Source: Parcubacteria group bacterium Gr01-1014_17
GTDB lineage: Bacteria > Patescibacteriota > Minisyncoccia > Phycocordibacterales > UBA10002
DNA length: 52,042 nt
Assembly (NCBI GenBank): GCA_007376285.1
Contig: VMFZ01000002.1
Coordinates: 1 to 52,042, forward strand
Direction of reading: 5' to 3'
The notes under the pieces were generated by a model, which did no database searches, was not told where the DNA came from, and was given only the letters and a program-made list of their open reading frames with translations. Of the stretch, positions 1,095 to 40,900 are shown one piece after another; positions within the stretch are counted from its first letter, which is position 1; each line of letters opens with the position of its first letter. The translations under genes were made by a program, and so were the position numbers.

Positions 1095-1687
1095 GGGCTC
1101 ACTTTCATAAACAGCGTGCGGAAATTAGCAACATCAAAATAGTGCGACAAGACGGGAGGCAATTCCTTTGCGACATGACCTGACCGAGAAAAACCAATAA
1201 CTATCTTGCCGTTTCCGCGTAAAAACTTTACCAAATACTCAAAATCGCAATCCCCAGAAAACAGAATCAGGGTGTCAAAATCTCCCATAGAAAATGTGGC
1301 ATCAACGGCAATCTCAACATCAAAATTTGCTTTGCGGTGCGGAACTTTTATCGTGTGATCTTCATACTCCTTGAGCGGTTTCGTAACAAGCTTGAATTTC
1401 AGTCCCTTGTCCAGAAAATATCTAAATCTGTGATGCCCCTCGCCGTCAAATGCCGCTGTGTAAAAGCGCACACTTTTGAAATCGCCAATGGTCTTAAAAA
1501 AATTATTAATCTTTTGATAATCAACTGACCATCTCAAGACATCAGCAGTCAAATGTTTCAAATCTTCCGGCACTTCATCCGACCGCACGAACATACTCTT
1601 GACCGATTGCTCAAGATTGGCGGCGTCAATATACACAACCACCTTGCCTTTAACCGCAGCTTTTAGCTTTGATTCATACTCATTCAT
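1049..1687 (-). CDS. NYN domain (LabA/DUF88, PIN-like) putative ribonuclease
   Basis: VYIDAANL, KANFDVEIAVD and LFSGDCDF acidic motifs. Confidence 0.9.
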   Translation of the reverse strand: MNEYESKLKAAVKGKVVVYIDAANLEQSVKSMFVRSDEVPEDLKHLTADVLRWSVDYQKINNFFKTIGDFKSVRFYTAAFDGEGHHRFRYFLDKGLKFKLVTKPLKEYEDHTIKVPHRKANFDVEIAVDATFSMGDFDTLILFSGDCDFEYLVKFLRGNGKIVIGFSRSGHVAKELPPVLSHYFDVANFRTLFMKVSPKAKSPEPFGSGLRS

Positions 1688-1815: not shown

Positions 1816-2166
1816 TTATTTCTTAATTAAATCTCCAGGAAAAGAATAAAGCGAAGGTTTTTTAATGATGGTCTTGTAAACATTTTCCAGAAAATCACCG
1901 CCGGCATAGCCAATCACAAAAGCCAAGGCCGGAGTGAGTTGCGGCAAGCCGAAAAATGTCAAACCCAATTCTTTAATCGTCATTGCACTTAAAACACCAA
2001 CGATACCGGAAATAAACATCATTCCCAAAAAATACGGCAATTTGAACGGAACACTTTTGTAGGAATATTGGTGCTTGATAAAACCAACCAAGCCCCTGAC
2101 TGCTCCGCCGCCAAATCCAGCAATTAAAATTGATACATAGATTGATTCAAACATAGTTTTGCGCAT
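1816..2166 (-). CDS. Small membrane protein with ~3 TM segments (start possibly at 2154)
   Basis: Hydrophobic Gly-rich segments; follows the Bro-N gene after 9 nt. Confidence 0.7.
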   Translation of the reverse strand: MRKTMFESIYVSILIAGFGGGAVRGLVGFIKHQYSYKSVPFKLPYFLGMMFISGIVGVLSAMTIKELGLTFFGLPQLTPALAFVIGYAGGDFLENVYKTIIKKPSLYSFPGDLIKK

Positions 2167-2175
2167 TGTATCACA

Positions 2176-3054
2176 TCATCTTGAAATGCTATCCACATCC
2201 AATCGTTTTTTACCTTCTGGATTTTTCAAAAAGTTTTTCTTTGATACCACCGACCGTCCGAGCCGCTTTTCCAGCTTCTTTCTTGCTCCGCCGGCAATAT
2301 CGCCGCCGGCTTTGGCGTCGGCTTTCAATTTTGGTACGCCTCTTGAATTTTCATTGCGATGAATTTCTGTTGTGGCGCGTTCGCCGAGCATATTGAAAAT
2401 CAATTCAAAATCATCCATATGATCACGCAGATTCTCCCGCTTAAGACCTTTAAGTTTTTTGTACTCGCTTGGCGTAACTCCGAATGACGCTTTAGAAATT
2501 TCAGCGGTCAAAATTTCATAATCTCTCTGCTCTTCCGCGCCACGCTTCTGCCACTCATCCGTCAGCTCCTCACGAATCGCAATCCCGCGCATTCGTTTTT
2601 CTATCCAATCCTCGCTATAGCCCTTCAGCTTATATAATGTCCTTGTCCGCTTAGTTGCCAATTCGGGGTTCTCAATTTCCTGCACTCTTTCGTAGCCAAC
2701 TTTTGCGAGCCATCTCTTGAACGGTTCGGCTTTTGGCGAAGGAATTGATTGGATAATGCGAAAAACGCCTTCAGTGTTGGCGCAGTCGGTTTCGTATTTT
2801 TTGCCATCAGAGGATTCTAATTTCAGTTGTTTACAAATTGTAAATAACTGAATTCCATCTTCACTGTTTACTCGAGCTTTCATTGCACTCCAATAAACAC
2901 TTGGTTTAGCACTATCGGTAAGCGCCTCAACGACATCCACAATTGAAAACCACCACTCATTGTTATGAAGGATTTTTCTGATCTGCTTGCCCTTAAATAA
3001 AGCAATCTTTGTCGTTTCAAGATTATTAATTGATTCGTTCACGCCATCAATCAT
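2176..3054 (-). CDS. Bro-N domain / phage antirepressor-like DNA-binding protein
   Basis: WWFSIVDVVEAL..YW, RIIQSIPSPKAEPFKRWLA and LRDHMDDFELIF are typical of the Bro-N family. Confidence 0.85.
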   Translation of the reverse strand: MIDGVNESINNLETTKIALFKGKQIRKILHNNEWWFSIVDVVEALTDSAKPSVYWSAMKARVNSEDGIQLFTICKQLKLESSDGKKYETDCANTEGVFRIIQSIPSPKAEPFKRWLAKVGYERVQEIENPELATKRTRTLYKLKGYSEDWIEKRMRGIAIREELTDEWQKRGAEEQRDYEILTAEISKASFGVTPSEYKKLKGLKRENLRDHMDDFELIFNMLGERATTEIHRNENSRGVPKLKADAKAGGDIAGGARKKLEKRLGRSVVSKKNFLKNPEGKKRLDVDSISR

Positions 3055-4020: not shown

Positions 4021-4059
4021 CGGCACCCGATGTTGATAGGCGGCAAACATCGGGTGCCG
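4021..4059. repeat. 14-bp inverted repeat element (second copy inside ileS)
   Basis: cggcacccgatgtt-N11-aacatcgggtgccg. Confidence 0.85.
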
Positions 4060-5070: not shown

Positions 5071-6298
5071 TTATTTCCAATTAAGCATCAAGAGATTAAA
5101 ATCCAAAATGTCTACCGCGCTGTCGCGGTTCAAGTCAGCGCCAGTATAAAACGGCCCTGCTGACACAACTCCTCCCCACACCGCAAACAAAATATTGAAA
5201 TCAAAAATATCGGTGTTTCCATCTCCGTTCATATCGCCCACTGAAGACGGTACACCAAATCCAGCCGGTCCATTGCCCCTCAAACTCACCACCGTTGACT
5301 GTCCCGACTCAAGCGCGGCAAATGAAGTAAAGTGATAGGTATGCACCTTTGTATCGGCCCCATTTGAAATAGCACATTCGCCGGGGAAAACCGGTGCAGA
5401 CGGTGCGTCATAGGTGCCACCGCACCCGTTTGCAATCTGAACCCACGCAGTTGAACCAGATGACTTGTACCCTACCGTGCCAGTAACTCCTGATAACACG
5501 ACAGATACTGGCTTATCGAAAAGAAGCACGCCCGCTGACGAACCGACTTCAAAAATCGTGCCGCCGACTGAAAACCCGACGGGAGGTTCCCCAGAACGCG
5601 ACACGGCTTTTGGGGGTGCGATGGTTCCGTCCCAGCCCTTGAATCACGACTGCCTTGCCCACTGATACAGTTTGCCCACCGACAAAAATCGGAATACTTA
5701 AATCAACTGATACTAAATTGCCGTTAGTAAAAGCCGAAAGGTTCTTCACTGCGCCGCCTATAATAACCTGCCCCGCAGATGCGGTATTTACAGAGGCAGA
5801 TACATCAAGCGATGTGGTGTTGCTCAATTTCACGGAAGTTGCTTGATTCGGCAGTGCCGCAGAGCCAACGCCCACGGTCGTGAGTGCCGCGTTTTCGGTG
5901 CGTGCGTCAATCAAAGAAAGAAGATACGAAAATGACACTGCGGTTGACTCCGTACTGTTCGGATAGCACGAAATCGCTTTTATGGTCTGCGTTTTCTTCA
6001 CGGAAATTGGCACAGAATAAATTGCGCCGCTTGCGCATGTTGGCGTTGTGCCGTCTGTCGTGTAACGAATACTCGTGGAACTATCCGCGGAAAGTGCGAT
6101 GCTCTGCGCGGCGTTGTAGGTACCGGCAGACGGAATCGCGGACGGGGCGAACGCGACAAAACCGCTTTGCGCCGGCGCGCAGCCAGTGCTCGTTGCAGTC
6201 AAAGAAAGCGTGCATAAAATTTCAGATGCAAACGAATTAGTGCCCGATATAAGGAATAAGATTGCTATCGTCAGTATCACAAAAGAATTTTTTCTCAT
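5071..6298 (-). pseudogene. Secreted Fn3-associated/chitobiase C-terminal + dockerin protein, frameshifted near 5638
   Basis: 5' ORF has a signal peptide and IRYTTDGTTP. The reading continues in another frame (GWDGTIAPPK..) to a dockerin (GDMNGDGNTDIFDF..ADLNRDSAVDILDF). Confidence 0.75.
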
Positions 6299-23558: not shown

Positions 23559-24587
23559 ATGGCATTTGGAAAGAAAAAAGAACCGAAAGCGGAAAAGACG
23601 CTTGATAAAGGTATTGAAAACGCGATTGCGGCGATTAAAACAAAATTCGGAGATGAGGCGATTATGAAGCTCGGAGAGAAACCGCGCGTGGATGTGAACG
23701 CCATACCGACTGGCTCTATCGGTCTAGATGCCGCGCTCGGGGTGGGCGGTCTTCCGCGCGGCAGAATTGTTGAAATCTTCGGACCGGAAAGCTCCGGCAA
23801 AACTACTGTTGCGCTCCATGTGGTGCGCGAAGCGCAAAAAAAAGACGGCATTTGCGCGTACATCGATGCTGAACATGCGATGGACCCCGAATACACAAAA
23901 AAAATCGGAGTGAAAATTGACGACTTGCTCATTTCCCAGCCGGATACTGGAGAACAGGCGCTTGAAATCGTGGAGGCGCTCGTGCGGAGCGGAAAACTTG
24001 ATGTGATTGTGATTGACTCTGTTGCGGCGCTCACACCAAAAGACGAAATTGAAGGCGATATGGGGCAACAGCATGTCGGCAAACAAGCGCGGCTTATGTC
24101 GCAGGCGCTCCGAAAGCTCACGGCGATCGTCGCGCGTTCAAAAACCGTTGTTATTTTCATCAATCAAATCCGGATGCAAATCGGCGTGATGTGGGGCAAT
24201 CCGGAAACGACTCCCGGCGGCAAAGCACTAAAGTTTTACACATCCATTCGTATTGATCTGCGCCGCATCGCGCAAATAAAAAAAGGAGAAGAGATTGTTG
24301 GCGGGCGCGTGCGCGCAAAAATCGTAAAAAACAAAGTTGCCGCGCCATTCAAGCAGACAGAGTTTGACTTGATGTACAACGAGGGCATTTCCGAAGAAGG
24401 CGAAGTTATCGCGCTCGGCGAAAAGTTCGGGATTATCCAAAAAGGAGGAGTCGGTTCATATTCCTATGGCGAGGTAAAGCTCGGCCGCGGCTACGACGCA
24501 ACGCGCACCTTCCTCAAAGAAAACCCGAAAATAAAAGCGGAGATTCTCAAACAGATTCGGGAGAAATTGAAGGAAGGGGTGGTGTAA
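23559..24587 (+). CDS. recA: Recombinase A
   Basis: [38 protein letters not shown]. Confidence 0.99.
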
Positions 24588-24601
24588 GTAACGCAAAAAG
24601 A

Positions 24602-24631
24602 AAAACCGGTCTAAACTACTTTAGCCGGTTT
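24602..24631. terminator. Probable bidirectional terminator
   Basis: aaaaccggtctaaa-ctac-tttagccggtttt between convergent genes. Confidence 0.6.
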
Positions 24632-24652
24632 TGCAACGAAAATTTGAACTTC

Positions 24653-25132
24653 TTAAGTTCTACACTTTGGAAGGAACGCAGTAACCTTAAATACTGGCGT
24701 GTAATCGTTAATGACCCATGTCCAAGTCCTGCCATTCGCTGTGTCCTCTCCAAAAATTCGCGGTTTATTGATATCCCAACCCTCAATTTCTTGGAAAGAC
24801 CATACCCACATAGGCAAATGTTTCCGCATTATAGGCAATGGATTTACATTAAACCTGTATGTGCTCTTTAAGAATTCGTAAATCTGCATACAAGAATGCA
24901 AATCTCGGTCATTGACATCTTCATGCACTAGTTTTTCGTGCACAATATCATAATATCTCTTTCGAAATAAATACTTATCCTCCCACCATGAAATGGCGAT
25001 TGGCCAAGGACTGCAATCAAAAGAAAGTGCGTGTTTTATGAACTCAAGAACTTCATTCTGTTTAGGATCCACACCAGACCAGTGTGTAAGTTTTCTTGTC
25101 AACGGTTTTAGTTTTTCTGTTCGATTTTTCAT
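24653..25132 (-). CDS. Hypothetical protein (AT-rich gene, Trp-rich product)
   Basis: 159-aa ORF with GGAG upstream and its own TTGACG-16-TATGAT promoter (25240-25267). Confidence 0.6.
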   Translation of the reverse strand: MKNRTEKLKPLTRKLTHWSGVDPKQNEVLEFIKHALSFDCSPWPIAISWWEDKYLFRKRYYDIVHEKLVHEDVNDRDLHSCMQIYEFLKSTYRFNVNPLPIMRKHLPMWVWSFQEIEGWDINKPRIFGEDTANGRTWTWVINDYTPVFKVTAFLPKCRT

Positions 25133-25267
25133 TGTGGATTCTCCACTGTCTCACGGACAAGTTCACCACTTGCAGGCAGGTGACGCCGTTTTGTTTTCAA
25201 CAGAAACGCTCCTCGCGTTCCTTACTGTATCCGATATACATCATACACACTTCCCACATCTCGTCAA

Positions 25268-25303
25268 TATACACTATCTTTGGCGACCGTTATAATTAGT
25301 GTA
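25268..25303 (+). repeat. 36-bp palindromic direct repeat, copy 1 (contains TATAAT; ends on the A of the ATG)
   Basis: tatacactatctttggcgaccgttataattagtgta. Confidence 0.9.
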
Positions 25304-25890
25304 TGGGAAAATTAGAACAAAAAGTGAAACAGAGGGCAAAGAAGAAGAATGTAGCGGGAATTATTCTCCGCATCGTGGCAGGAGCAGGGCTACTCAGCGC
25401 GGCGCTTGTTGCGCCAAACGCGCTCAAAGCGATGAAAACGCTCGGCATCCTTCCTCACGGACGGCAAAAGGAAGTAGTGCGCCGCGCACAAGCTCGACTA
25501 GTGACGCAAAAGCTTATTTCTAGAAATTCACGCGGATTTTTGCGCCTTACAAGCCAAGGAGAAGAAAAGTTGGAATATCTGAAACGAAATAACTTTGAGC
25601 GTTTTAGAATGACGCTTCCGCCGAGGTGGGATAAGAAATGGCGTTTGTTTATCTTTGATATAAAAGAAGAACGTAGACGCGACCGCGACTATATCCGCCG
25701 TACGCTTGAAAATATGGGGGCTGTGCCACTGCAAAAGAGTGTTTGGGTGTACCCTCACGACTGTGAAGATATGATCGCGCTTCTCAAGGTCGACTTTAAA
25801 GTAGGGAACAATCTCTTGTATATAATCGCTGATGAAATAGAAAATGATCGTTCGCTCCGCGAGCATTTCAACCTGCCCCTGCAATCATAA
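25303..25890 (+). CDS. PaaX-like protein (wHTH + Cas2-like domain)
   Basis: LRLTSQG wing, then WDKKWRLFIFDI.E..R..RD.IR..L..MG...LQKSVWVYP. Confidence 0.85.
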   Translation: MGKLEQKVKQRAKKKNVAGIILRIVAGAGLLSAALVAPNALKAMKTLGILPHGRQKEVVRRAQARLVTQKLISRNSRGFLRLTSQGEEKLEYLKRNNFERFRMTLPPRWDKKWRLFIFDIKEERRRDRDYIRRTLENMGAVPLQKSVWVYPHDCEDMIALLKVDFKVGNNLLYIIADEIENDRSLREHFNLPLQS

Positions 25891-25946
25891 AAAGCGGTAA
25901 CGATGGAAAACAGAAGAAAAAAACTAGGAAAACAACCAAGGTTCGG

Positions 25947-25982
25947 TATACACTATCTTTGGCGACCGTTAAAGATAGTGTA
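25947..25982 (+). repeat. 36-bp palindromic direct repeat, copy 2
   Basis: tatacactatctttggcgaccgttaaagatagtgta; perfect 12-bp arms; 33/36 identical to copy 1. Confidence 0.9.
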
Positions 25983-26023
25983 GGTGGACTTTTTTAGATG
26001 TCTCGGATAGAATTGCGCTTTGT

Positions 26024-26584
26024 ATGCTTACCTACAGCGAAATCTTGCCGAAGAAAGTTATTGTGATGGATGGCGCGCCGTACGAAGTACTGGACGCGCA
26101 TATTTTCCGAATGCAGCAGAGAAAGCCCGTTAATCAAACGAAGCTCAAAAACCTTATTACTGGAAAAATTGCCGAGACCACCTTCCACCAAGCGGATAAG
26201 GCGGAAGAAGCTGACTTGCAAAAGAAAGAAGCGAAATATCTCTACACAAACCGCGGAGAATGGTGGTTTTGCGAGCCAGCGGTGCCGTCAAACCGATTTA
26301 AGATTACTGAAGAGATGATTGGGGGCGCGGGAAAGTTTTTGAAGCAGAATGCGCCAATTGAGCTTTTGGTGTTTGATGAAAAGATTATCGGCGTTAAGTT
26401 GCCGATTAAAGTTGAATTAAAAGTTACCGAAGCGCCGCCTGCAGTTAGAGGAGACACAGCAAGAGGCGGCTCAAAACAAGTAACACTGGAAAACGGCGCA
26501 ACGCTGAATGTTCCATTCTTCATCAACGAAGGAGACACACTCCGCATCAATACCGAAACGGGAGAGTATGTGGAGCGGGTCTAA
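26024..26584 (+). CDS. efp: Elongation factor P
   Basis: [31 protein letters not shown]. Confidence 0.96.
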
Positions 26585-26775: not shown

Positions 26776-26833
26776 GTTTTTTGTTTTTTATTCGCGGCAT
26801 TCGCGTTTTAATTTGTAGATTCGCATCGAGTTA

Positions 26834-27857: not shown

Positions 27858-28706
27858 CTAGAACCCTTGCAAACCGAAAAACTGTTCGGCGTTTTTGAGA
27901 AGTTGCACTCGCACACTCTCATGGTCCTCGTTGCGGATTTCTGCAATTTTCTTTACCACTTCTACAACATACGCCGGTTCGTTCCGCTTTCCGCGAAATG
28001 GCACAGGGGCGACATACGGGCAGTCGGTTTCTGACATAATTCGTTCAAGCGGAAGGTAGCGAACCACTTCGTCGTAGTCGTGCGTAAAGGTGACAACGCC
28101 CGTGAATGAAAAAGAGTATCCGAGTTCAAGAAATTTCTTCGCATCCTCTACCGTTCCTGCAAAAAAATGCAGGTTGCCGGGAACTTTTGCGGCGGTTTTT
28201 AAAAGAGCATGCGCCTCCTGATATGCCTGCCGAATATGGAGCATCAAGGGTTTGCGTACCTCATTTGCCAACTCAATTTGTTTCCTAAACGCTTCTTCCT
28301 GTTTTTTATTCGCGTCATTCGCGCTCATTCGTGTATTGGTGTCGTGTCTATAGTAATCCAGCCCGCACTCTCCTATCGCGACAACCTTAGGGTGCAGAGC
28401 GAGTTTTTTGTAATATTCATAATCAAAGCCCTCGCCTCGTGAAGTGAATTCTTTTCCGTTCTCACCAAGTTCCTCCTCATCATGAAATGATTTCGCGGTA
28501 TGAATAGGGTGGAGCCCCACTGCCGCATATACGCCGTTTTCGTATTGTTCCGCAATTTCAATCGCCGCGCGCGAAGTGTCTTGTTGCGTACCAACATTTA
28601 TTAGCGCAACGCCTGCCTCATACGCGCGTTGTGTCGCCTCCGCACGGTCATTATCAAACGCCGCGAAGTTCGTATGCGAATGGATGTCGATGTATGAAAA
28701 ACGCAT
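27858..28706 (-). CDS. tatD: TatD family nuclease
   Basis: DIHSH, GLHP, AIGECGLDY, ETDCPY..P.RGKRNEP. Confidence 0.95.
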   Translation of the reverse strand: MRFSYIDIHSHTNFAAFDNDRAEATQRAYEAGVALINVGTQQDTSRAAIEIAEQYENGVYAAVGLHPIHTAKSFHDEEELGENGKEFTSRGEGFDYEYYKKLALHPKVVAIGECGLDYYRHDTNTRMSANDANKKQEEAFRKQIELANEVRKPLMLHIRQAYQEAHALLKTAAKVPGNLHFFAGTVEDAKKFLELGYSFSFTGVVTFTHDYDEVVRYLPLERIMSETDCPYVAPVPFRGKRNEPAYVVEVVKKIAEIRNEDHESVRVQLLKNAEQFFGLQGF

Positions 28707-31276: not shown

Positions 31277-32545
31277 CTACTGCGTCAAAAGGTCGCACAA
31301 TTTAGCTTCTGCTGGTAATTTTCCCACCGCCGCAAAGTTAAGCCGTTCGGGCGTGAAGATAAGGCGCGCGACTTCCTGCACATCGCCACTTTCCACCTTT
31401 TCAATTTCTCTCGCAATCTCATCCGGCTGTTTCAACTCCTTGCGCAAAATCTCCTGCATACCGTAAAACTCTGCGAGTTCGTCCGTTGATTCCAGCGACA
31501 AATACATATTCCCAATCAAACAATCTTTCACTTTCCTCAACTCGTCTTTTGAAAGAGGTTCAGTGCGTAAGCGCGCAAACTCGGCAAGAATCGCACCGAT
31601 TGCCTCCTCCACGCGATGGGGGGCAACGCCCGCCGAAACGGTAAAAAAACCATGGTCAGTCAGCGCGTCGTTGTCGGTCTTCACATAATAGCAAATGCCG
31701 AGTTCCTCGCGCATTTTCTGGAACAGGCGCGAGCTCATCCCCGCGCCGAGCAATCCCGCAAGTACTTTAAGCGCCGGCAATTTTTTGTCGTACGCATTGC
31801 AGGTGCGCACACCGAGCACAAAATGTGTCTGGTCGGTTTTGCGCGATTCAACGCGCACGGCGGGCGTATTTTGATTTTCAACAACGGCGGTTTTCTGATG
31901 CTTTTTTCCGGAAGACATTCCCTCAAACGCACGCAAAGCAACTTCTTCCGCTTCTCTTTCTGAAACCGCACCAGCAACAACCATGGTCGTTGCGCCGGAC
32001 ACATAGTGCTTGTCGCGGTATGCAACGAAATCCGCGCGCGTCATCGCGCGCACACTCTCGGGCGTTCCCGCTATATTCCACCCCGCCGGCTGAGCGCCGT
32101 AAAGCAATTCCAAAAACAAATCCTGCACATGCCTCTGCGGGAGGTCATTGTACATATTTATTTCCTCCACAATAACGCCCTTCTCTTTTTCAATCTCTGG
32201 TGCGGGAAACGAAGGATTGAGGTAAATGTCGGATACCACAGAAAGAATCTTCCCGAAATGCTGTTTGGCGGATTTTGCAAAATACCCCGTGAATTCCTGC
32301 GAGGTGAATGCGTTGTACACGGCGCCTATGGCATCTAGTTCGCGGGAAATGTCTATCGCTTTTGGCCGCTTCGCGGTTCCCTTGAAACACATATGCTCCA
32401 AAAAGTGCGATAACCCGCTTATGTTTTTCGTCTCATACTTGCTCCCCGCTTCCACCAGCGCCATCACTGTTACAGTTTGACTGTCTTTCATCGGCACGAC
32501 AATCAGCCGCATCCCGTTCGGGAGGATTGTTTTAGAAAATTTCAT
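31277..32545 (-). CDS. M16 family zinc peptidase
   Basis: HFLEHMCFKGT (HXXEH), NAFTS. Confidence 0.95.
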   Translation of the reverse strand: MKFSKTILPNGMRLIVVPMKDSQTVTVMALVEAGSKYETKNISGLSHFLEHMCFKGTAKRPKAIDISRELDAIGAVYNAFTSQEFTGYFAKSAKQHFGKILSVVSDIYLNPSFPAPEIEKEKGVIVEEINMYNDLPQRHVQDLFLELLYGAQPAGWNIAGTPESVRAMTRADFVAYRDKHYVSGATTMVVAGAVSEREAEEVALRAFEGMSSGKKHQKTAVVENQNTPAVRVESRKTDQTHFVLGVRTCNAYDKKLPALKVLAGLLGAGMSSRLFQKMREELGICYYVKTDNDALTDHGFFTVSAGVAPHRVEEAIGAILAEFARLRTEPLSKDELRKVKDCLIGNMYLSLESTDELAEFYGMQEILRKELKQPDEIAREIEKVESGDVQEVARLIFTPERLNFAAVGKLPAEAKLCDLLTQ

Positions 32546-37983: not shown

Positions 37984-40900
37984 CTACACTTTAATATCAA
38001 ACTTATAGAGATCTCCGCAGATTGAAGTTGTTTCGCCAACTGCAATCGAAACAAACTGAACATCTTTAAGCAATGCGGATTTTTTGAGTTCGCCAATAAA
38101 CTTTTCTACAAACGCCTTACCATCCGCGCTAGTGTCCACGATAAGCGTTGCTAAGTCGGAAATGGTCAATCCTTTCTTTTTGCGTAAATTCTGCACCGCA
38201 CGAACAAGTTCGCGAAAATTACCTTCTTCTTTGAGTTCTTGTGTTATTGTGGTATCTAATTCCACTTCTCCAGCAAGGGTTTTATCAAAGATTACCTCTT
38301 TTATATTTACTTCTTCTTGTATAAGGAGTAAGAATTCTGTGTGAATTTCTAATTTTTTAATTTTTAATTTTTGGAGAGGTTGTCGAATCTTTATATTCGC
38401 TTTCGCACGCGCTTCCAGTGCAAGTGACACTATTTTTCTCACTTCCTCCATTTTTTCTAGCACTCCAGTTTCCAATTTCCAGTTTCCAGTGTCTGGCCAA
38501 CTTTCAAGATGCACGCTTGGGACCGACAAAATCGGCACCAGATGTTTGAAGCCCCCAACATCTGGTGCCGTAAAAATAGACTGATACATCTCTTCCGCCA
38601 AAAACGGCATTATTGGGGCGATGAGTTTTGATAGAGATAGCAAGACCTCGCGCTGGGTCGCAAGCGCGTACTGCTTGTCTTGTTCGTTTTCGGACTTCAC
38701 CCGCGCCCGCGAACGGCGGATGTACCATGTGGAATAATCTTCTGTGAACGCGCGGATTTCACGGCACGCAGAGGGCGTATCATACACCTCCATTGCATTT
38801 GTGATTGTCTGCACAGCGCGCGCGAGGCGCGCGCGTATCCATACATCCAATATATGCATACTTTCTTCCGCGTGTGTTTTCCCGTTATACTTGTCTTTAT
38901 ATAACTCAAAAAACGAAAGACAGTTTCGTAGAATCCCCACCACGCGATTGTGCGCTTCGCGCACATCGTCATCGCGGAAACTCAAGTCCTCGCCCTGCAT
39001 CACCACACTTCCCATAAGGCACAACCGAAACGCGTCCGCGCCGTATTGGTCCATCAAAAGAAACGGGTCCGTGTAATTACCTTTTGATTTTGAGATTTTC
39101 GCGCCGTCTTCCGCTAAAATCGTACCGGTGGAAACCACTGCATTAAATGCGCGTCTGTTGGACAACAAAATACCAAGCGCGTGAAGGTAATAGAACCAAG
39201 TGCGCGTTTGGGCAATATATTCTGCAATAAAATCCGCCGGGTATTTCGCCGGCTTTGACGCAAACGGCATCGCCGCCGATTCCACCCAACAATCAACCAC
39301 TTCAGGAATGCGCTCGTATTCCCTTCCAGCTTCATCAACAAGAGTCAGCGTGTCTATCCACGGGCGGTGCAAATCAAGTTCATAGTCCTGATTGTGTGGG
39401 AAAAGTGCAAACTGAAGCACGAGCGTTTCTGCAAGCCCCAACATAACTCTGTCTGAAAACTGGTTAGACGGTTTACCTTCTGCAACTTGAGACAAAACCC
39501 ATAACGGACCGCCGTGTCCAACGATAAGAATTCTTTTATTTTGATAACGGCTCTCTATTTCAAACAAAAACTCGCCGACTCGCCGACGAACCTCTACAAG
39601 TGTCTGCTCGTTGCGTTCATGCAGGCGCTCGTCAACTATAACGGCGTTGTCCGGCAATCCGAGCTCTTTTTGAACAAGGAGAGCCGTCTCGCGCGTACGC
39701 ACAAACGGCGAGGTAATTATAAAATCAATTTTCTCGCGTTTAAGATTAGCAGCGGCATGCACCACACCCGCTTTTCCATTACCTGTCAGATGATTCTGCG
39801 GGTCTCCATACAAATCTTCTATGTTTTTAACATTATCAATCGCTTCGCCGTGCCGCATAATAAAATATTGATTGCCAGATTTTTTCACCAGATGTTTCAA
39901 TTCATCAAGTGAACCGACCACAATCACACGGCTACCTCCCTTCTCTTTCCAAATCGGCAACGGCGTCGCCCAAAAACGGTTACGCGAAATGTTCCAATCA
40001 GGAGCCCCTTCCACAATGTTTTTGAAACGACCGTGTTTCAAGTGTTCTGGCACCCACTGTATCTTTTCGTTTTCCGAAAGCATTTTCTTTTTTGCTTTTT
40101 GTATGGCGATGAACCACGACGGCACCGCGTTGTAAATCAAAGGCGTCCCACACCGATAGCAGTGCGGGTATTCGTGCGTGTTCAATGCGCGCGCAAAAAG
40201 CAATCCTCGTGTTTCCAAATCCGACTTTATTTCTTCCTCCGCATCCTTTACATACTTTCCGCGCAAAAACTCCGGTGCGTGTTCGTTGTACTTCGCGCTT
40301 GCATCAAGCAGTTGCACCATCGACAACCCTTCTTTCTGACCGAGCGCAAAATCATCTTCTCCATACATCACCGCCGTATGCACGATTCCCGTTCCTTCTT
40401 CCGTGTTAACAAAATCCGCTGCGTACACTTTGTATGATTTCTCCGACTTGAGCGCGGGTACTTCAAAAATCGGCTCGTATTCCAACCCAACCAACTTCTT
40501 TCCTTTTATTTCCTCTATTGTTTCGTACGCTTTCCCTTTAAAAACTTCGGCAAGTCGATCTTTTGCAAGAATAAAAAGATCGTTCTCGATTTTGACTTTC
40601 ACATAAACAATCTTCTCTCCCACTGCGAGCGCGACATTCCCCGGAAGCGTCCATGGCGTCGTCGTCCACGCAAGCAAATAAACATCCCCATTTAATCCAA
40701 TCTTCTCCGGTTTTTTGACCTTAAACTTTACCGTTACCGCTTCTTCCGTAATTTCTTTATAGGTATTGTCCATCGCAATCTCGGCTTTCGCCAAAGGCGT
40801 TTCGCAGTGCGGGCAATACATAAGCACCTTTTTTCCTTCATACAAAAGTTTTTTCTCGTGCAACTGTTTAAGCGCCCACCACACGCTCTCCATATATGAG

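Follow-up and report, generated by a model that had tools for sequence, protein, structure and literature searches.

Palindromic repeats on both sides of a PaaX-type regulator gene in Patescibacteria: candidate paired operators of an autorepressor

The Patescibacteria (CPR) are uncultivated bacteria with tiny genomes and few recognisable regulators, and the control of their genes is almost unknown. The stretch of DNA analysed here, referred to below as the window, comprises 52,042 nt of contig VMFZ01000002.1 from an uncultivated member of this group, Parcubacteria group bacterium Gr01-1014_17. It contains a pair of 36-nt repeats with a single gene, encoding 195 amino acids, between them. What are two palindromic repeats for when they enclose nothing more than one gene? 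The original prediction for this locus described the gene as Cas2-like or PaaX-like and offered two answers, namely an excisable one-gene cassette or a dual-operator circuit that also controls the adjacent gene efp.

The locus and its encoded protein

The two repeats are identical at 33 of 36 positions (92%), and their first 25 bases are the same. The downstream copy, O2, has perfect 12-nt arms (25949–25960 and 25971–25982) with 10 nt between them, and its repeat starts 57 nt past the stop codon of the gene. The three differences between the copies turn the TAAAGA of O2 into the TATAAT of the upstream copy, O1, which is a poorer palindrome as a result of these substitutions. O1 ends at base 25303, which is also the first base of the start codon (ATG) of the gene. 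Most of these details had been pointed out in the original prediction and were found again. With up to 3 mismatches allowed, the 34-nt dyad occurs only twice in the 52,042 bases, against 0.00 expected from 100 shuffles. When every 34-nt dyad centre of the window was scored, O2 was one of only 5 with at least 14 of 17 complementary pairs. The absence of an array or cas1, also noted originally, was confirmed: the repeat scan of the whole window gave no array-like set of at least three repeats at even spacing, and none of the 47 window ORFs matched a Cas family at E ≤ 1e-15. An Rfam scan of 24400–26200 gave no match at E ≤ 1. The features of the locus are collected in Table 1.

Table 1. Coordinates of the regulator gene, its two sites and the neighbouring features in the window
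Feature	Position	Strand	Basis
O1, upstream copy	repeat 25268–25303, dyad 25270–25303	+	dyad score 11/17; promoter of the gene inside
Gene for 195-aa PaaX-type regulator	25303–25890	+	PF20803 match
O2, downstream copy	repeat 25947–25982, dyad 25949–25982	+	undisturbed palindrome, dyad score 14/17
efp (elongation factor P)	26024–26584	+	NF001810, 177.1 bits against a cut-off of 161; Pfam EFP domains
efp promoter-like site, TGGACT/17 nt/TAGAAT	25985–26013	+	promoter scan; starts 2 nt past O2
Divergent promoter-like site, TTGACG/16 nt/TATGAT	25240–25267	−	−35 is 2 nt from the left edge of the O1 dyad
159-aa ORF, divergent from O1, in the variable slot	24653–25132	−	no Pfam, NCBIfam or PADLOC family

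The promoter within O1 consists of a −35 hexamer TATACA (25268–25273), a spacer of 17 nt and the −10 hexamer TATAAT (25291–25296), with a score of 10/12. The promoter scan of the window is not significant by itself (4 sites against 3.8 expected). Among homologous loci in Patescibacteria genomes, a −10-like hexamer stands exactly at −12 to −7 in 50 of 80, with 15 or fewer at any other offset, so that the promoter of a leaderless mRNA would lie within the site. The best dyad is centred 17 to 20 nt before the ATG, and thereby ends at it, in 56 of 81 loci (counted by hand). Shine–Dalgarno motifs precede 5 of the 47 ORF starts in the window, and the genome is poor in such motifs. These positions suggest a leaderless mRNA whose first base is the A of the ATG or lies beside it, with O1 upstream of the transcript start.

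The assignment of the encoded protein to a PaaX-like, Cas2-like type proved correct. Its Cas2-like domain matches PaaX_M (PF20803) over residues 107–180 (nt 25621–25842) with an E-value of 2.9e-19 and 69.4 bits, against a cut-off of 24, and Pfam finds no additional domain in the 195 residues. The predicted winged-helix part spans approximately residues 47–95 (nt 25441–25587). The N-terminal PaaX model of Pfam gave no match at E ≤ 1, and residues 55–100 are matched in the profile alignment to the recognition helix and the wing of 8A39 (PaaX of E. coli W) and 3KFW (Rv0674). An AF2 model of moderate confidence (mean pLDDT 65.4, below 50 for the N-terminal 36 residues and 54–74 for the helix and two-strand part) predicts a helix at residues 53–68 and strands at 72–74 and 80–82, followed by a beta-alpha-beta-beta-alpha-beta unit. 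The top match in the PDB, both by sequence profile and by fold, is E. coli PaaX 8A39, with Cas2 proteins next by fold. Sequence and fold place the repressor PaaX and Rv0674 closest; the whole-chain TM-score to PaaX is low (0.37), and residues 105–195 alone gave no match in the PDB with phmmer at E ≤ 10. The chain stops at residue 195, just past the Cas2-like domain, while E. coli PaaX has 316 residues, and the PaaX C-terminal domain is absent. The equivalog TIGR02277 scores 36.9 bits, far under its cut-off of 264.55. The protein contains no ligand-sensing domain, and no paa genes occur among the window ORFs scanned, which include housekeeping genes. The N-terminus carries a conserved MGxLE motif. 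A hydrophobic N-terminal stretch was considered as a membrane anchor and set aside; it sits N-terminal to the part aligned with the PaaX recognition helix and wing, and it presumably represents the first helices of the winged-helix core, as in the N-terminal domain of PaaX.

Matches to Cas2 itself are weak. PF09827 reaches 16.8 bits against a cut-off of 23.8 and TIGR01573 reaches 19 bits against 24.5, while the Cas2 models of PADLOC (E-values from 3e-4 to 2.5e-3) are confined to residues 113–152. At the end of the first strand of the domain, in the motif FDI, residue D119 is the same in all 28 sequences compared. It is aligned with the Asp of the motif YDV in the Sulfolobus Cas2 protein SSO8090, which we take to be the catalytic residue of Cas2; the same position holds Glu in E. 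coli PaaX and Thr in Rv0674.

Pairing of sites across the family

The comparison covered 80–81 homologous loci in Patescibacteria genomes, each taken with about 6.5 kb of sequence. The upstream dyad of the locus has an additional copy in 72 of 81 loci. In 70 of 80, such a copy lies between −30 and +180 of the stop codon with at most 10 of 34 mismatches, so the check proposed with the original prediction, for flanking repeat pairs private to each paralog, has a positive outcome. In cross-locus comparisons, 39 of 950 match that well, and a control region 1 kb away gave 0 of 75, even at 14 or fewer mismatches. The downstream copy is centred at a median of 39 nt past the stop codon, and the centres of O1 and O2 are 594–770 bp apart. 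Third copies within 3 kb on either side are rare (about 6 of 81 loci: L002, L004, L018, L031, L035 and L045). The two copies were tested for strict direct-repeat orientation, which was rejected: their asymmetric bases are direct in 37 loci and inverted in 15, with a tie in 17.

The family has 2623 representatives at 50% identity (E ≤ 1e-10) and is, as far as seen, confined to Patescibacteria; among the matches listed, PF20803 is present in 120 of 120 homologues. Single genomes carry several paralogs, with a maximum of 5 in the retained set of 80 loci, and these are 47–82% identical to one another. Paralogs of the same genome at 47–70% identity have differing sites, and the pair with 82% identity (L050 and L075) has one site in common. 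The two closest relatives of the window gene, in L001 (90% amino acid identity) and L002 (81%), have kept both copies, the position of O2 and the downstream efp, and their base changes are common to all copies in each genome.

The dyads have a bipartite symmetry. It is 0.8–1.0 at positions ±2–4 and ±11–18, about 0.6 at ±5–10 and about 0.3 beyond 19, and the C at −3 and the G at +3 in the core are invariant. Some O2 palindromes are longer by 5–8 pairs; as a general feature, extended palindromes were rejected, with only a few loci extending and symmetry beyond ±19 at background over 69 loci. Over the whole family O2 is hardly the better palindrome, with 242 mismatched pairs of 1173 against 255 for O1, a comparison affected by the choice of O1 as the best dyad. 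The label of a strong auxiliary site for O2 is therefore limited to the clade of the window. Among the 242 mismatches of O2, there are 53 G·T and 47 A·C, and a G·U bias is absent.

The sites also vary together with the protein. The top pairs by APC-corrected mutual information connect R61, E57, V58, Q63 and R54 with arm positions 13–17, and all five residues sit on the predicted helix 53–68. The identity of the arms follows that of residues 51–72 (rho 0.44) more closely than that of the Cas2-like domain (rho 0.23), and over bins of increasing helix identity the arms go from a mean identity of 0.32 to one of 0.84; these values come from 68 sequences and are confounded by shared ancestry. The anatomy is operator-like, with arms at ±11–18, about 30 bp from centre to centre, overlapping the −35, the −10 and the start. 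By their symmetry and mismatches, the sites look like DNA sites for a protein and not like RNA stems.

The surroundings of the gene are partly conserved within the clade of the window. The order recA, variable gene, regulator and efp is common to three genomes, namely those of the window, L001 and L002. The efp promoter-like site keeps its hexamers and spacing in L001, where the spacer has diverged, and L002 has an equivalent in the same place (TGGCTT, 17 nt, TAGGAT, read directly from the sequence). On the other side, the divergent promoter-like site is kept in L001 and L002 as TTGACG/16/TATAAT. At a distance of 2–3 nt from O1, TTGAC occurs in 11 of 69 loci, and no other offset has it more than once. 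The leader of the divergent gene has no significant fold (z −1.56). The slot next to O1 holds an ORF of 122 aa with an RNAP alpha-CTD-like domain in L001 and a DUF218 protein in L002. Relatives of the 159-aa ORF of the window were found in neither of these two genomes, and the ESM Atlas gave leads at chance level only (best 0.79).

Explanations for the paired sites

Judged from the sequences, the two repeats are probably, if by no means certainly, the paired cognate operators of an autorepressor encoded between them. A dimer would extend over three helical turns, with its two recognition helices on the outer arms at ±11 to 18 and the centre of the site, with the invariant C and G, under the dimer core. 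Dimerisation would be mediated by the Cas2-like domain, which is the dimerisation module of PaaX. Occupancy of O1 would shut the gene off by negative autoregulation, because O1 overlaps the whole promoter and the start at the ATG. O2, an intact palindrome in the first non-coding DNA past the stop codon, would be a second, auxiliary site. Its likeliest role may be cooperative binding, in which the 679-bp segment is looped out and repression at O1 is stabilised; alternatively, it could mark the 3′ end of the gene as a roadblock or a terminator. The 69 distances between O1 and O2 show no periodicity at 9.5–12 bp (Rayleigh p 0.2–0.97) and thus provide no positive evidence for looping. In the clade of the window, the outer edge of each site is 2 nt from the −35 of a promoter directed outwards (towards the divergent gene at O1, towards efp at O2), and the bound protein would probably modulate both neighbouring genes too, with either sign. 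The dual-operator circuit of the original prediction, taken without its efp part, fits the promoter position within O1, the protein-site symmetry profile, the co-variation of arms and helix and the PaaX-like operator architecture. A point against an autorepressor is that it is not obvious what purpose a regulator would serve by binding solely around its own gene.

O2 could instead be chiefly the operator of efp, and the protein a dedicated local regulator of efp and itself, with two sites for two promoters, as in the complete dual-operator circuit of the original prediction. The efp promoter 2 nt past O2 and its counterparts in L001 and L002, the gene order of the three genomes and the same 2-nt geometry at the divergent promoter beside O1 speak in favour of this, and control of efp is plausible in this clade. 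It is not general: of the 81 loci, just three (the window, L001 and L002) have efp as the neighbour of the regulator, and an outward promoter-like site stands at an offset of 2–3 from O2 in only 3 of 69 loci. The downstream copy follows the regulator whatever the neighbour (thyA, gatC, glutaredoxin, purD, ligA, rnc, topA, HIT or cca), and 41 of 79 neighbours are convergent. For this reason O2 is not generally explained by control of efp, and we consider it unlikely that this is its chief purpose. A different role for the palindromes, as the ends of a one-gene cassette that recombines or is mobile now or was so recently, would resemble RAYT/REP, IS200-type or integron cassette systems. Each paralog is flanked by its specific cognate palindromes, genomes carry several paralogs of a highly diverse family, and the slot beside O1 is variable. 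Signs of duplication or decay of site DNA are seen in the extra copy of L002, in L018, where a site with at least 100 nt of flank is duplicated, and in L045, where a solo site is followed by ATGGGT. RAYT genes are, according to the sections consulted of one study, short, vertically inherited and typically and specifically associated with their own flanking palindromic repeat family, the REPINs (PMC3337134). Against such a cassette stand the lack of any HUH/Y1, integrase or transposase domain in the protein (Pfam, NCBIfam, PADLOC) and of a recombinase among the neighbours scanned (78 downstream, 29 upstream). Orthologues retain their neighbours across genomes (thyA, topA, HIT, cca, purD, rnc), same-genome paralogs are far from near-identical, the orientation of the copies is mixed, and the window holds just two copies, of which the upstream one looks like a working promoter. 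The excisable cassette of the original prediction is accordingly not supported by these data, and a mobile unit of this kind seems quite improbable.

The palindromes could also serve mainly as RNA or DNA hairpins that are not read by the protein, O2 being a terminator or 3′ stabiliser and O1 its copy. O2 of the window with its flanks folds at −27.4 kcal/mol (z −3.9; none of 200 shuffles as good) and is followed by a U-run. O2 always comes right after the stop, a T-run follows in about 10–12 of 70 O2 sites (read by hand), and there are the few palindromes with additional pairs. Yet a stem needs continuous pairing, and at positions 5–10 only about 60% of loci have complementary bases. The lack of a G·U bias argues in the same direction; a T-run was rejected as a family feature, with a mean of 3.8 T in the 12 nt past O2, and the terminator scan does not call O2 of the window. 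Moreover, a hairpin does not explain why a terminator should repeat the dyad of its own promoter, or why its divergence should parallel that of the recognition helix, and O1 would lie upstream of the transcript start. That the palindromes are mainly hairpins is consequently very unlikely in our view. The remaining reading treats the protein as an active Cas2-type nuclease that is directed to the palindromes by its winged helix, in a site-specific cleavage or processing module possibly connected with how Cas2 acquired its partnership with repeats. The invariant D119, the weak Cas2 matches and the CRISPR-like length and dyad shape of the repeats can be cited for it. Nevertheless, the Cas2 scores are below all curated cut-offs, cas1 and an array are lacking, sequence and fold point to PaaX and Rv0674 as the nearest relatives, and the only "spacer" is the gene itself. 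Cutting beside its own promoter in every generation would be hard to square with the conserved synteny. The CRISPR-like reading is not supported, and a nuclease of this type appears very improbable. The autorepressor with paired operators is hence preferred.

Relation to known systems and significance

The closest known counterpart of the proposed circuit is PaaX (E. coli W, 8A39; Rv0674, 3KFW). Its winged helix is followed by a Cas2-like middle domain, as predicted for the present protein, and its operator is a widely spaced inverted repeat, which the putative operators resemble in sequence anatomy. According to part of a review, the site of the E. coli protein is TGATTC(N27)GAATCA, and its own Px promoter is repressed by PaaX (PMC9493321). 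In the present family, several paralogs occur per genome, only in Patescibacteria as far as seen, and there are no paa genes nearby. Sensing of phenylacetyl-CoA is not expected, because the C-terminal domain of PaaX is absent. The site is symmetric through its centre, it is present in two copies per gene, and the protein retains the Cas2-type Asp.

The repressor CI of phage lambda is encoded between the operators OR and OL, and the cI mRNA from PRM is leaderless. Looping between these flanking operators tightens autoregulation, and the bound protein represses one promoter while touching RNA polymerase at the adjacent one. The lambda operators are tripartite arrangements of 17-bp sites, bound by an unrelated HTH protein, with a loop of 2.4 kb and in a phage context. 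In contrast, there is one long dyad on each side here, and the putative loop would be approximately 0.6–0.77 kb. The controller (C) proteins of restriction–modification systems are also small autoregulators with palindromic boxes (C-boxes) over their own promoter elements, and the transcript of C.PvuII from the C-dependent promoter is leaderless, as stated in a portion of one report (PMC2175313). They differ in their Xre-type HTH, in tandem boxes of about 35 bp that are found upstream only, in the co-transcribed endonuclease and in the lack of a second copy past the gene.

With RAYT genes and their REPINs, the family shares a gene flanked by its own palindromes (the 70 of 80 loci against 39 of 950 across loci). 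RAYTs are HUH/Y1 transposases, and REPINs number tens to hundreds per genome; here there is no transposase domain, two copies occur in 52 kb, third copies are rare and the upstream copy is the promoter. With Cas2 and CRISPR, it has in common the ferredoxin-like Cas2 fold, the conserved Asp and partly palindromic repeats of about 36 bp. It differs from them in scores below the Cas2 cut-offs, in the absence of cas1 (none among the neighbours scanned in 80 loci), of an array and of spacers, and in operator-like dyads that differ for each paralog.

In the titles and opening lines of abstracts that were searched, no description of this PaaX/Cas2-like family of Patescibacteria was found, and papers on "PaaX-like" proteins concern other bacteria. 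What is new here is the comparative result, apparent at the sequence level, that the regulator gene is paired with copies of its own dyad throughout the family. A bolder possibility, which we think has little chance of being right, is that these are self-contained modules of a gene plus two sites and form a previously unrecognised class, in which the protein would not only repress: its Cas2-type active site, still with the Asp, would act on the invariant CG core, and at their palindromes the modules would duplicate, recombine or seed variable slots, like a domesticated element of the REP/RAYT kind. If so, repeat recognition by a Cas2-fold protein acting alone could still be observed in an existing system.

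For annotation, there is a correction to be made, since members of the family are labelled "CRISPR-associated endonuclease Cas2" in public records in the absence of a CRISPR system. Looping, a roadblock and the insulation of neighbours are candidate reasons for a second site past the stop codon. With hundreds of natural pairs of protein and operator, a recognition code could be derived, and the family may offer a ready set of repressors that are probably orthogonal to one another. For organisms that are beyond cultivation, promoters and leaderless starts can also be predicted directly from it, in a form open to testing.

Repeat pair and the protein it flanks

A search of the window for repeats returned a 36-nt direct repeat whose two copies agree at 33 of 36 bases. 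In the downstream copy (O2), a 10-nt centre lies between perfect 12-nt arms. The upstream copy (O1) differs by three bases, which turn TAAAGA into TATAAT, and its final base doubles as the A of the regulator gene's ATG. With up to 3 mismatches allowed, the 34-nt dyad occurs in the 52,042 bases at O1 and O2 only, and in none of 100 shuffles. This anatomy bears out the original prediction in every detail. The prediction had also stated that there is no CRISPR array or cas1, and indeed the repeat scan of the whole window found no array-like family, and the 47 window ORFs scanned contained no Cas family. No second paralog of the regulator gene is present in the window.

Other repeats were seen in the window. 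A second pair of palindromes with 12-nt arms (GCACC[C/A]GATGTT..AACATC[G/T]GGTGC; 0 expected by chance) has an arm difference that is compensated in the opposite arm. One copy lies just 5' of a start on the minus strand; the protein there reads MAITKEKKKAIVEKL and by the look of the sequence we take it to be ribosomal protein L10. The other copy lies within ileS. The first copy of a 24-nt repeat (96% identical) overlaps a terminator-like hairpin between S18-like and ssb genes, and the second is within a TatD-family ORF.

Coordinates of features in the window and in homologous loci (L numbers) from other Patescibacteria genomes
Feature	Position	Strand	Remark
O1, window	25268-25303		
O2, window	25947-25982		
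Regulator gene, window	25303-25890	+	195 aa
Divergent promoter-like site, window		-	TTGACG/16/TATGAT; -35 2 nt from O1 left edge
efp promoter-like site, window			TGGACT/17/TAGAAT; -35 begins 2 nt past O2
recA-O1 slot, window	24653-25262	-	159-aa ORF, no family
recA-O1 slot, L001	347-857	-	122-aa ORF, RNAP alpha-CTD-like domain
recA-O1 slot, L002	2185-3000	-	DUF218 protein
81-nt insertion, L002	about 2890-2970		with extra palindrome copy
Third copy, L004	about 5190-5224		between two convergent stop codons
In-frame stop, L009	3025-3027		codon 10
Duplicated site, L018	about 1004-1140; about 2053-2190		about 90% identity
Solo palindrome and ORF, L045	about 1346-1605		
Second palindrome pair, window	4023-4057; 38535-38568		
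24-nt repeat, window	26782-26805; 28300-28323		
M16-type peptidase-like ORF, window	31277-32545	-	about 5 kb from efp

The Cas2-like/PaaX-like identity originally proposed for the gene agrees with the domain searches. Residues 107-180 match the Pfam family PaaX_M ("PaaX protein central Cas2-like domain") at E 2.9e-19, and Cas2 models match only below their cut-offs. The PaaX equivalog TIGR02277 aligns with residues 53-161 but reaches 36.9 bits where 264.55 would be required. The chain ends directly past the Cas2-like domain and therefore does not have the PaaX C-terminal domain. With a profile of 28 homologues, the best solved relatives were E. coli PaaX (8A39) and Rv0674 (3KFW), then Sulfolobus Cas2 SSO8090. 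The AlphaFold2 model (mean pLDDT 65.4; 74-85 in the Cas2-like part, below 50 in the first 36 residues) begins with three short helices, which are followed by a long one at 53-68, a wing of two strands and a beta-alpha-beta-beta-alpha-beta unit; Foldseek placed PaaX first (E 4.7e-4), Rv0674 second and then several Cas2 proteins. D119, in the motif FDI, is an invariant Asp across the family; its column holds the Asp of YDV in SSO8090, Glu in PaaX and Thr in Rv0674. The middle domain, together with what is likely a winged helix, makes the regulator PaaX-type. PaaX has a C-terminal sensing domain and a paa gene context, and the regulator has neither; it also fails the equivalog test. It should be filed as a separate PaaX_M-domain family, neither PaaX nor Cas2.

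The family is large. A word-indexed search gave 396 matches at E<=0.001, and an exhaustive search, counted as representatives at 50% identity, gave 5440 with E<=1e-3, 2623 with E<=1e-10 and 422 with E<=1e-30; the best 150 of the latter search are 154-259 aa long, mostly about 190. GTDB species genomes hold at least 592 homologous loci, and the named sources of homologues are Patescibacteria groups throughout. Some records name these proteins "CRISPR-associated endonuclease Cas2". The literature searches found no paper describing this PaaX_M-domain regulator family.

Paired dyads across the family

The 80 best of the at least 592 loci were compared by scripts. In the closest relatives, L001 (90% aa) and L002 (81% aa), both copies are at the same places with efp downstream, and base changes at the centre of the site are common to all copies of one genome. 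At 43-57% aa identity, a dyad of about 34 nt is again found just 5' of the ATG in the form ACAnnn..C..G..nnnTGT, with arms that vary from locus to locus. When the best dyad between -120 and +5 was taken for each of 81 loci, 56 had its centre at -17 to -20 (manual count), and in most others it lay 29-100 nt upstream. A further copy of a locus's own dyad, with at most 10 of 34 mismatches, is found in 72/81 loci. In 70/80 it lies between -30 and +180 of the stop codon, compared with 39 matches in 950 comparisons when the dyad of one locus was sought downstream of another; control regions 1 kb further on (n=75) gave nothing better than 15 mismatches. The suggestion that each paralog might have its own flanking pair is therefore upheld. 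Same-genome paralogs at 47-70% identity have different sites, and the sole 82%-identical pair (L050/L075) has a common one. In L009 (Kaiserbacteria), the regulator gene has a single in-frame stop, with the rest intact, and both palindromes are retained.

The symmetry of the sites was averaged over 69 non-redundant loci. Counted from the centre, the fraction of loci whose half-sites pair is 0.84-1.0 for positions 2-4 and 0.8-0.99 for positions 11-18; it drops to about 0.6 for positions 5-10 and to about 0.3, which is background, beyond position 19. Two bases never vary, C at -3 and G at +3. Because the symmetry is bipartite, which is the mark of a symmetric DNA-binding protein, such a protein is the predicted reader of the dyad. 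An RNA stem was also considered for the family dyads and is unlikely: it needs continuous pairing and tolerance of G·U, and positions 5-10 pair too poorly and G·T is not in excess (53 G·T versus 47 A·C among 242 mismatched pairs of O2). The 12 nt after O2 hold a mean of 3.8 T, and T-runs are no family feature.

O1 and O2 of one locus agree at the arms and core in 0.9-1.0 of loci, and in 0.3-0.6 with shuffled partners. Protein and site also vary together. The top APC-corrected mutual-information pairs join R61, E57, V58, Q63 and R54, all on the predicted helix 53-68, with arm positions 13-17, and residues 47-72 hold 9 of the 30 top pairs. Identity over residues 51-72 correlates with arm identity (rho 0.44, 2278 locus pairs) more strongly than that of the Cas2-like domain (0.23) or the N-terminus (0.24), and the more alike the helices, the higher the mean arm identity, which climbs from 0.32 to 0.84. 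This co-variation, confounded by shared ancestry, is supportive, not decisive, for recognition of the arms by the helix.

Promoters, start codon and the downstream copy

In the window, O1 contains TATACA, 17 nt and TATAAT, with the ATG 6 nt past the -10. A -10-like hexamer lies at exactly -12 to -7 from the A of the ATG in 50/80 loci (other offsets at most 15), including loci whose dyad sits further upstream. The N-terminus MGxLE is conserved in the family, and no Shine-Dalgarno motif precedes this start; the genome is poor in such motifs (5/47 window ORF starts), and a -10-like box precedes many ORF starts in the window by a few bases. Because of this fixed -10, the conserved start and the scarcity of Shine-Dalgarno motifs, the regulator mRNA is most likely leaderless, and the window suggests that leaderless or near-leaderless mRNAs are the rule in Gr01-1014_17. 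If a protein occupied O1, the -35, the -10 and the start would all lie beneath it.

Two promoter-like sites (see the table) also point outwards from the pair, each with its -35 2 nt from the nearer repeat. Both are kept in L001 and L002, with diverged spacers. In 11/69 loci the outward strand has TTGAC 2-3 nt from O1's left edge, and at other offsets from 0 to 49 it is seen at most once each; with the full promoter-like site required at that 2-3 nt offset, O1 scores in 7 loci, O2 in 3 and the controls in none. The promoter scan of the window alone was not significant (4 sites versus 3.8 expected). Relative to the outward promoter, the proximal arm falls at about -41, the position used by class II activators and by lambda CI bound to OR2, so it is plausible by analogy that the bound regulator contacts RNA polymerase there, positively or negatively.

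O2 accompanies the regulator gene and not any particular neighbour. The genes downstream include efp, thyA, gatC, glutaredoxin, purD, aldolases, S14, RNase HII, aminoacyl-tRNA synthetases, ligA, rnc, topA, HIT, cca and others; 41/79 are convergent (crude ORF calls), and orthologues retain the same neighbours across genomes. (Near efp in the window, the M16-type ORF scored 126.5 vs 285 and 121.5 vs 250 against the "EF-P 5-aminopentanol modification-associated" YfmF/YfmH models, far below the cut-offs.) The downstream copy is centred a median of 39 nt past the stop (quartiles 27-58). Where there is no room, the second copy can be upstream (L031 -129, L035 -88, L002 -98). The simplest reading is that O2 would be an auxiliary operator in the nearest non-coding DNA, permitting cooperative binding with O1 and DNA looping, as with other repressors that have two separated sites. 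Centre-to-centre distances of 594-770 bp show no helical phasing, and none would be expected once sites are some 600 bp or further apart. As an alternative or an addition, O2 may act as a roadblock or terminator at the 3' end of the gene. In the window, O2 with its flanks can fold at -27.4 kcal/mol (z -3.9) before a U-run, and L004 has its third copy past thyA and a 167-aa ORF, so its sites bracket that operon too.

Mobility, known systems and meaning

The original prediction also allowed for an excisable one-gene cassette, which is unlikely. No recombinase, transposase or Cas1 domain was found in the regulator protein or the 107 neighbours scanned, synteny is conserved, same-genome paralogs are divergent, and the 52 kb hold two palindrome copies only. 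By their asymmetric bases, the two copies are direct in 37 loci, inverted in 15 and tied in 17. A few observations do speak for some recombination at the sites or close to them. The extra copy in L002 is perfect, of the downstream type and 98 nt before the ATG. L018 has the site with at least 100 nt of right flank twice; one copy precedes the regulator gene by 428 nt and the other lies past it. L045 has a solo palindrome 1.6 kb upstream. Directly after it comes ATGGGT, just as the true gene begins, and then an unrelated ORF of 74 aa. This may be a cassette in decay, and two nearby genes are, judging by eye from sequence, presumably TrmB-like HTH genes. The minus-strand gene found between recA and O1 is a different one in each of the window, L001 and L002, although roughly 100 nt adjoining O1 are conserved in all three; this stretch takes in the divergent promoter and a small hairpin whose 3' arm, GCGTTTC, is invariant.

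In function, the regulator would most resemble an autorepressor whose gene is flanked by two of its operators, and its mechanism class is ordinary. Lambda CI with OR/OL is an analogue, its repressor gene lying between two operators. For E. coli PaaX, the site is described as TGATTC(N27)GAATCA, an architecture that the present dyads match, and PaaX impedes RNA polymerase at Px, its own promoter, which it thereby represses (PMC9493321). C proteins, a further analogue, are described as autoregulators with C-boxes and a leaderless transcript (PMC2175313). RAYT genes are described as flanked by their own REPINs (PMC3337134), a likeness that, as the evidence stands, is one of form only. The unexpected part, which lends itself to direct testing, is a rule that runs through the family: long dyads come in private pairs, one pair per paralog, with a promoter and a leaderless start most likely built into one dyad of the pair. 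This rule is seen in bacteria whose regulation is essentially unknown.
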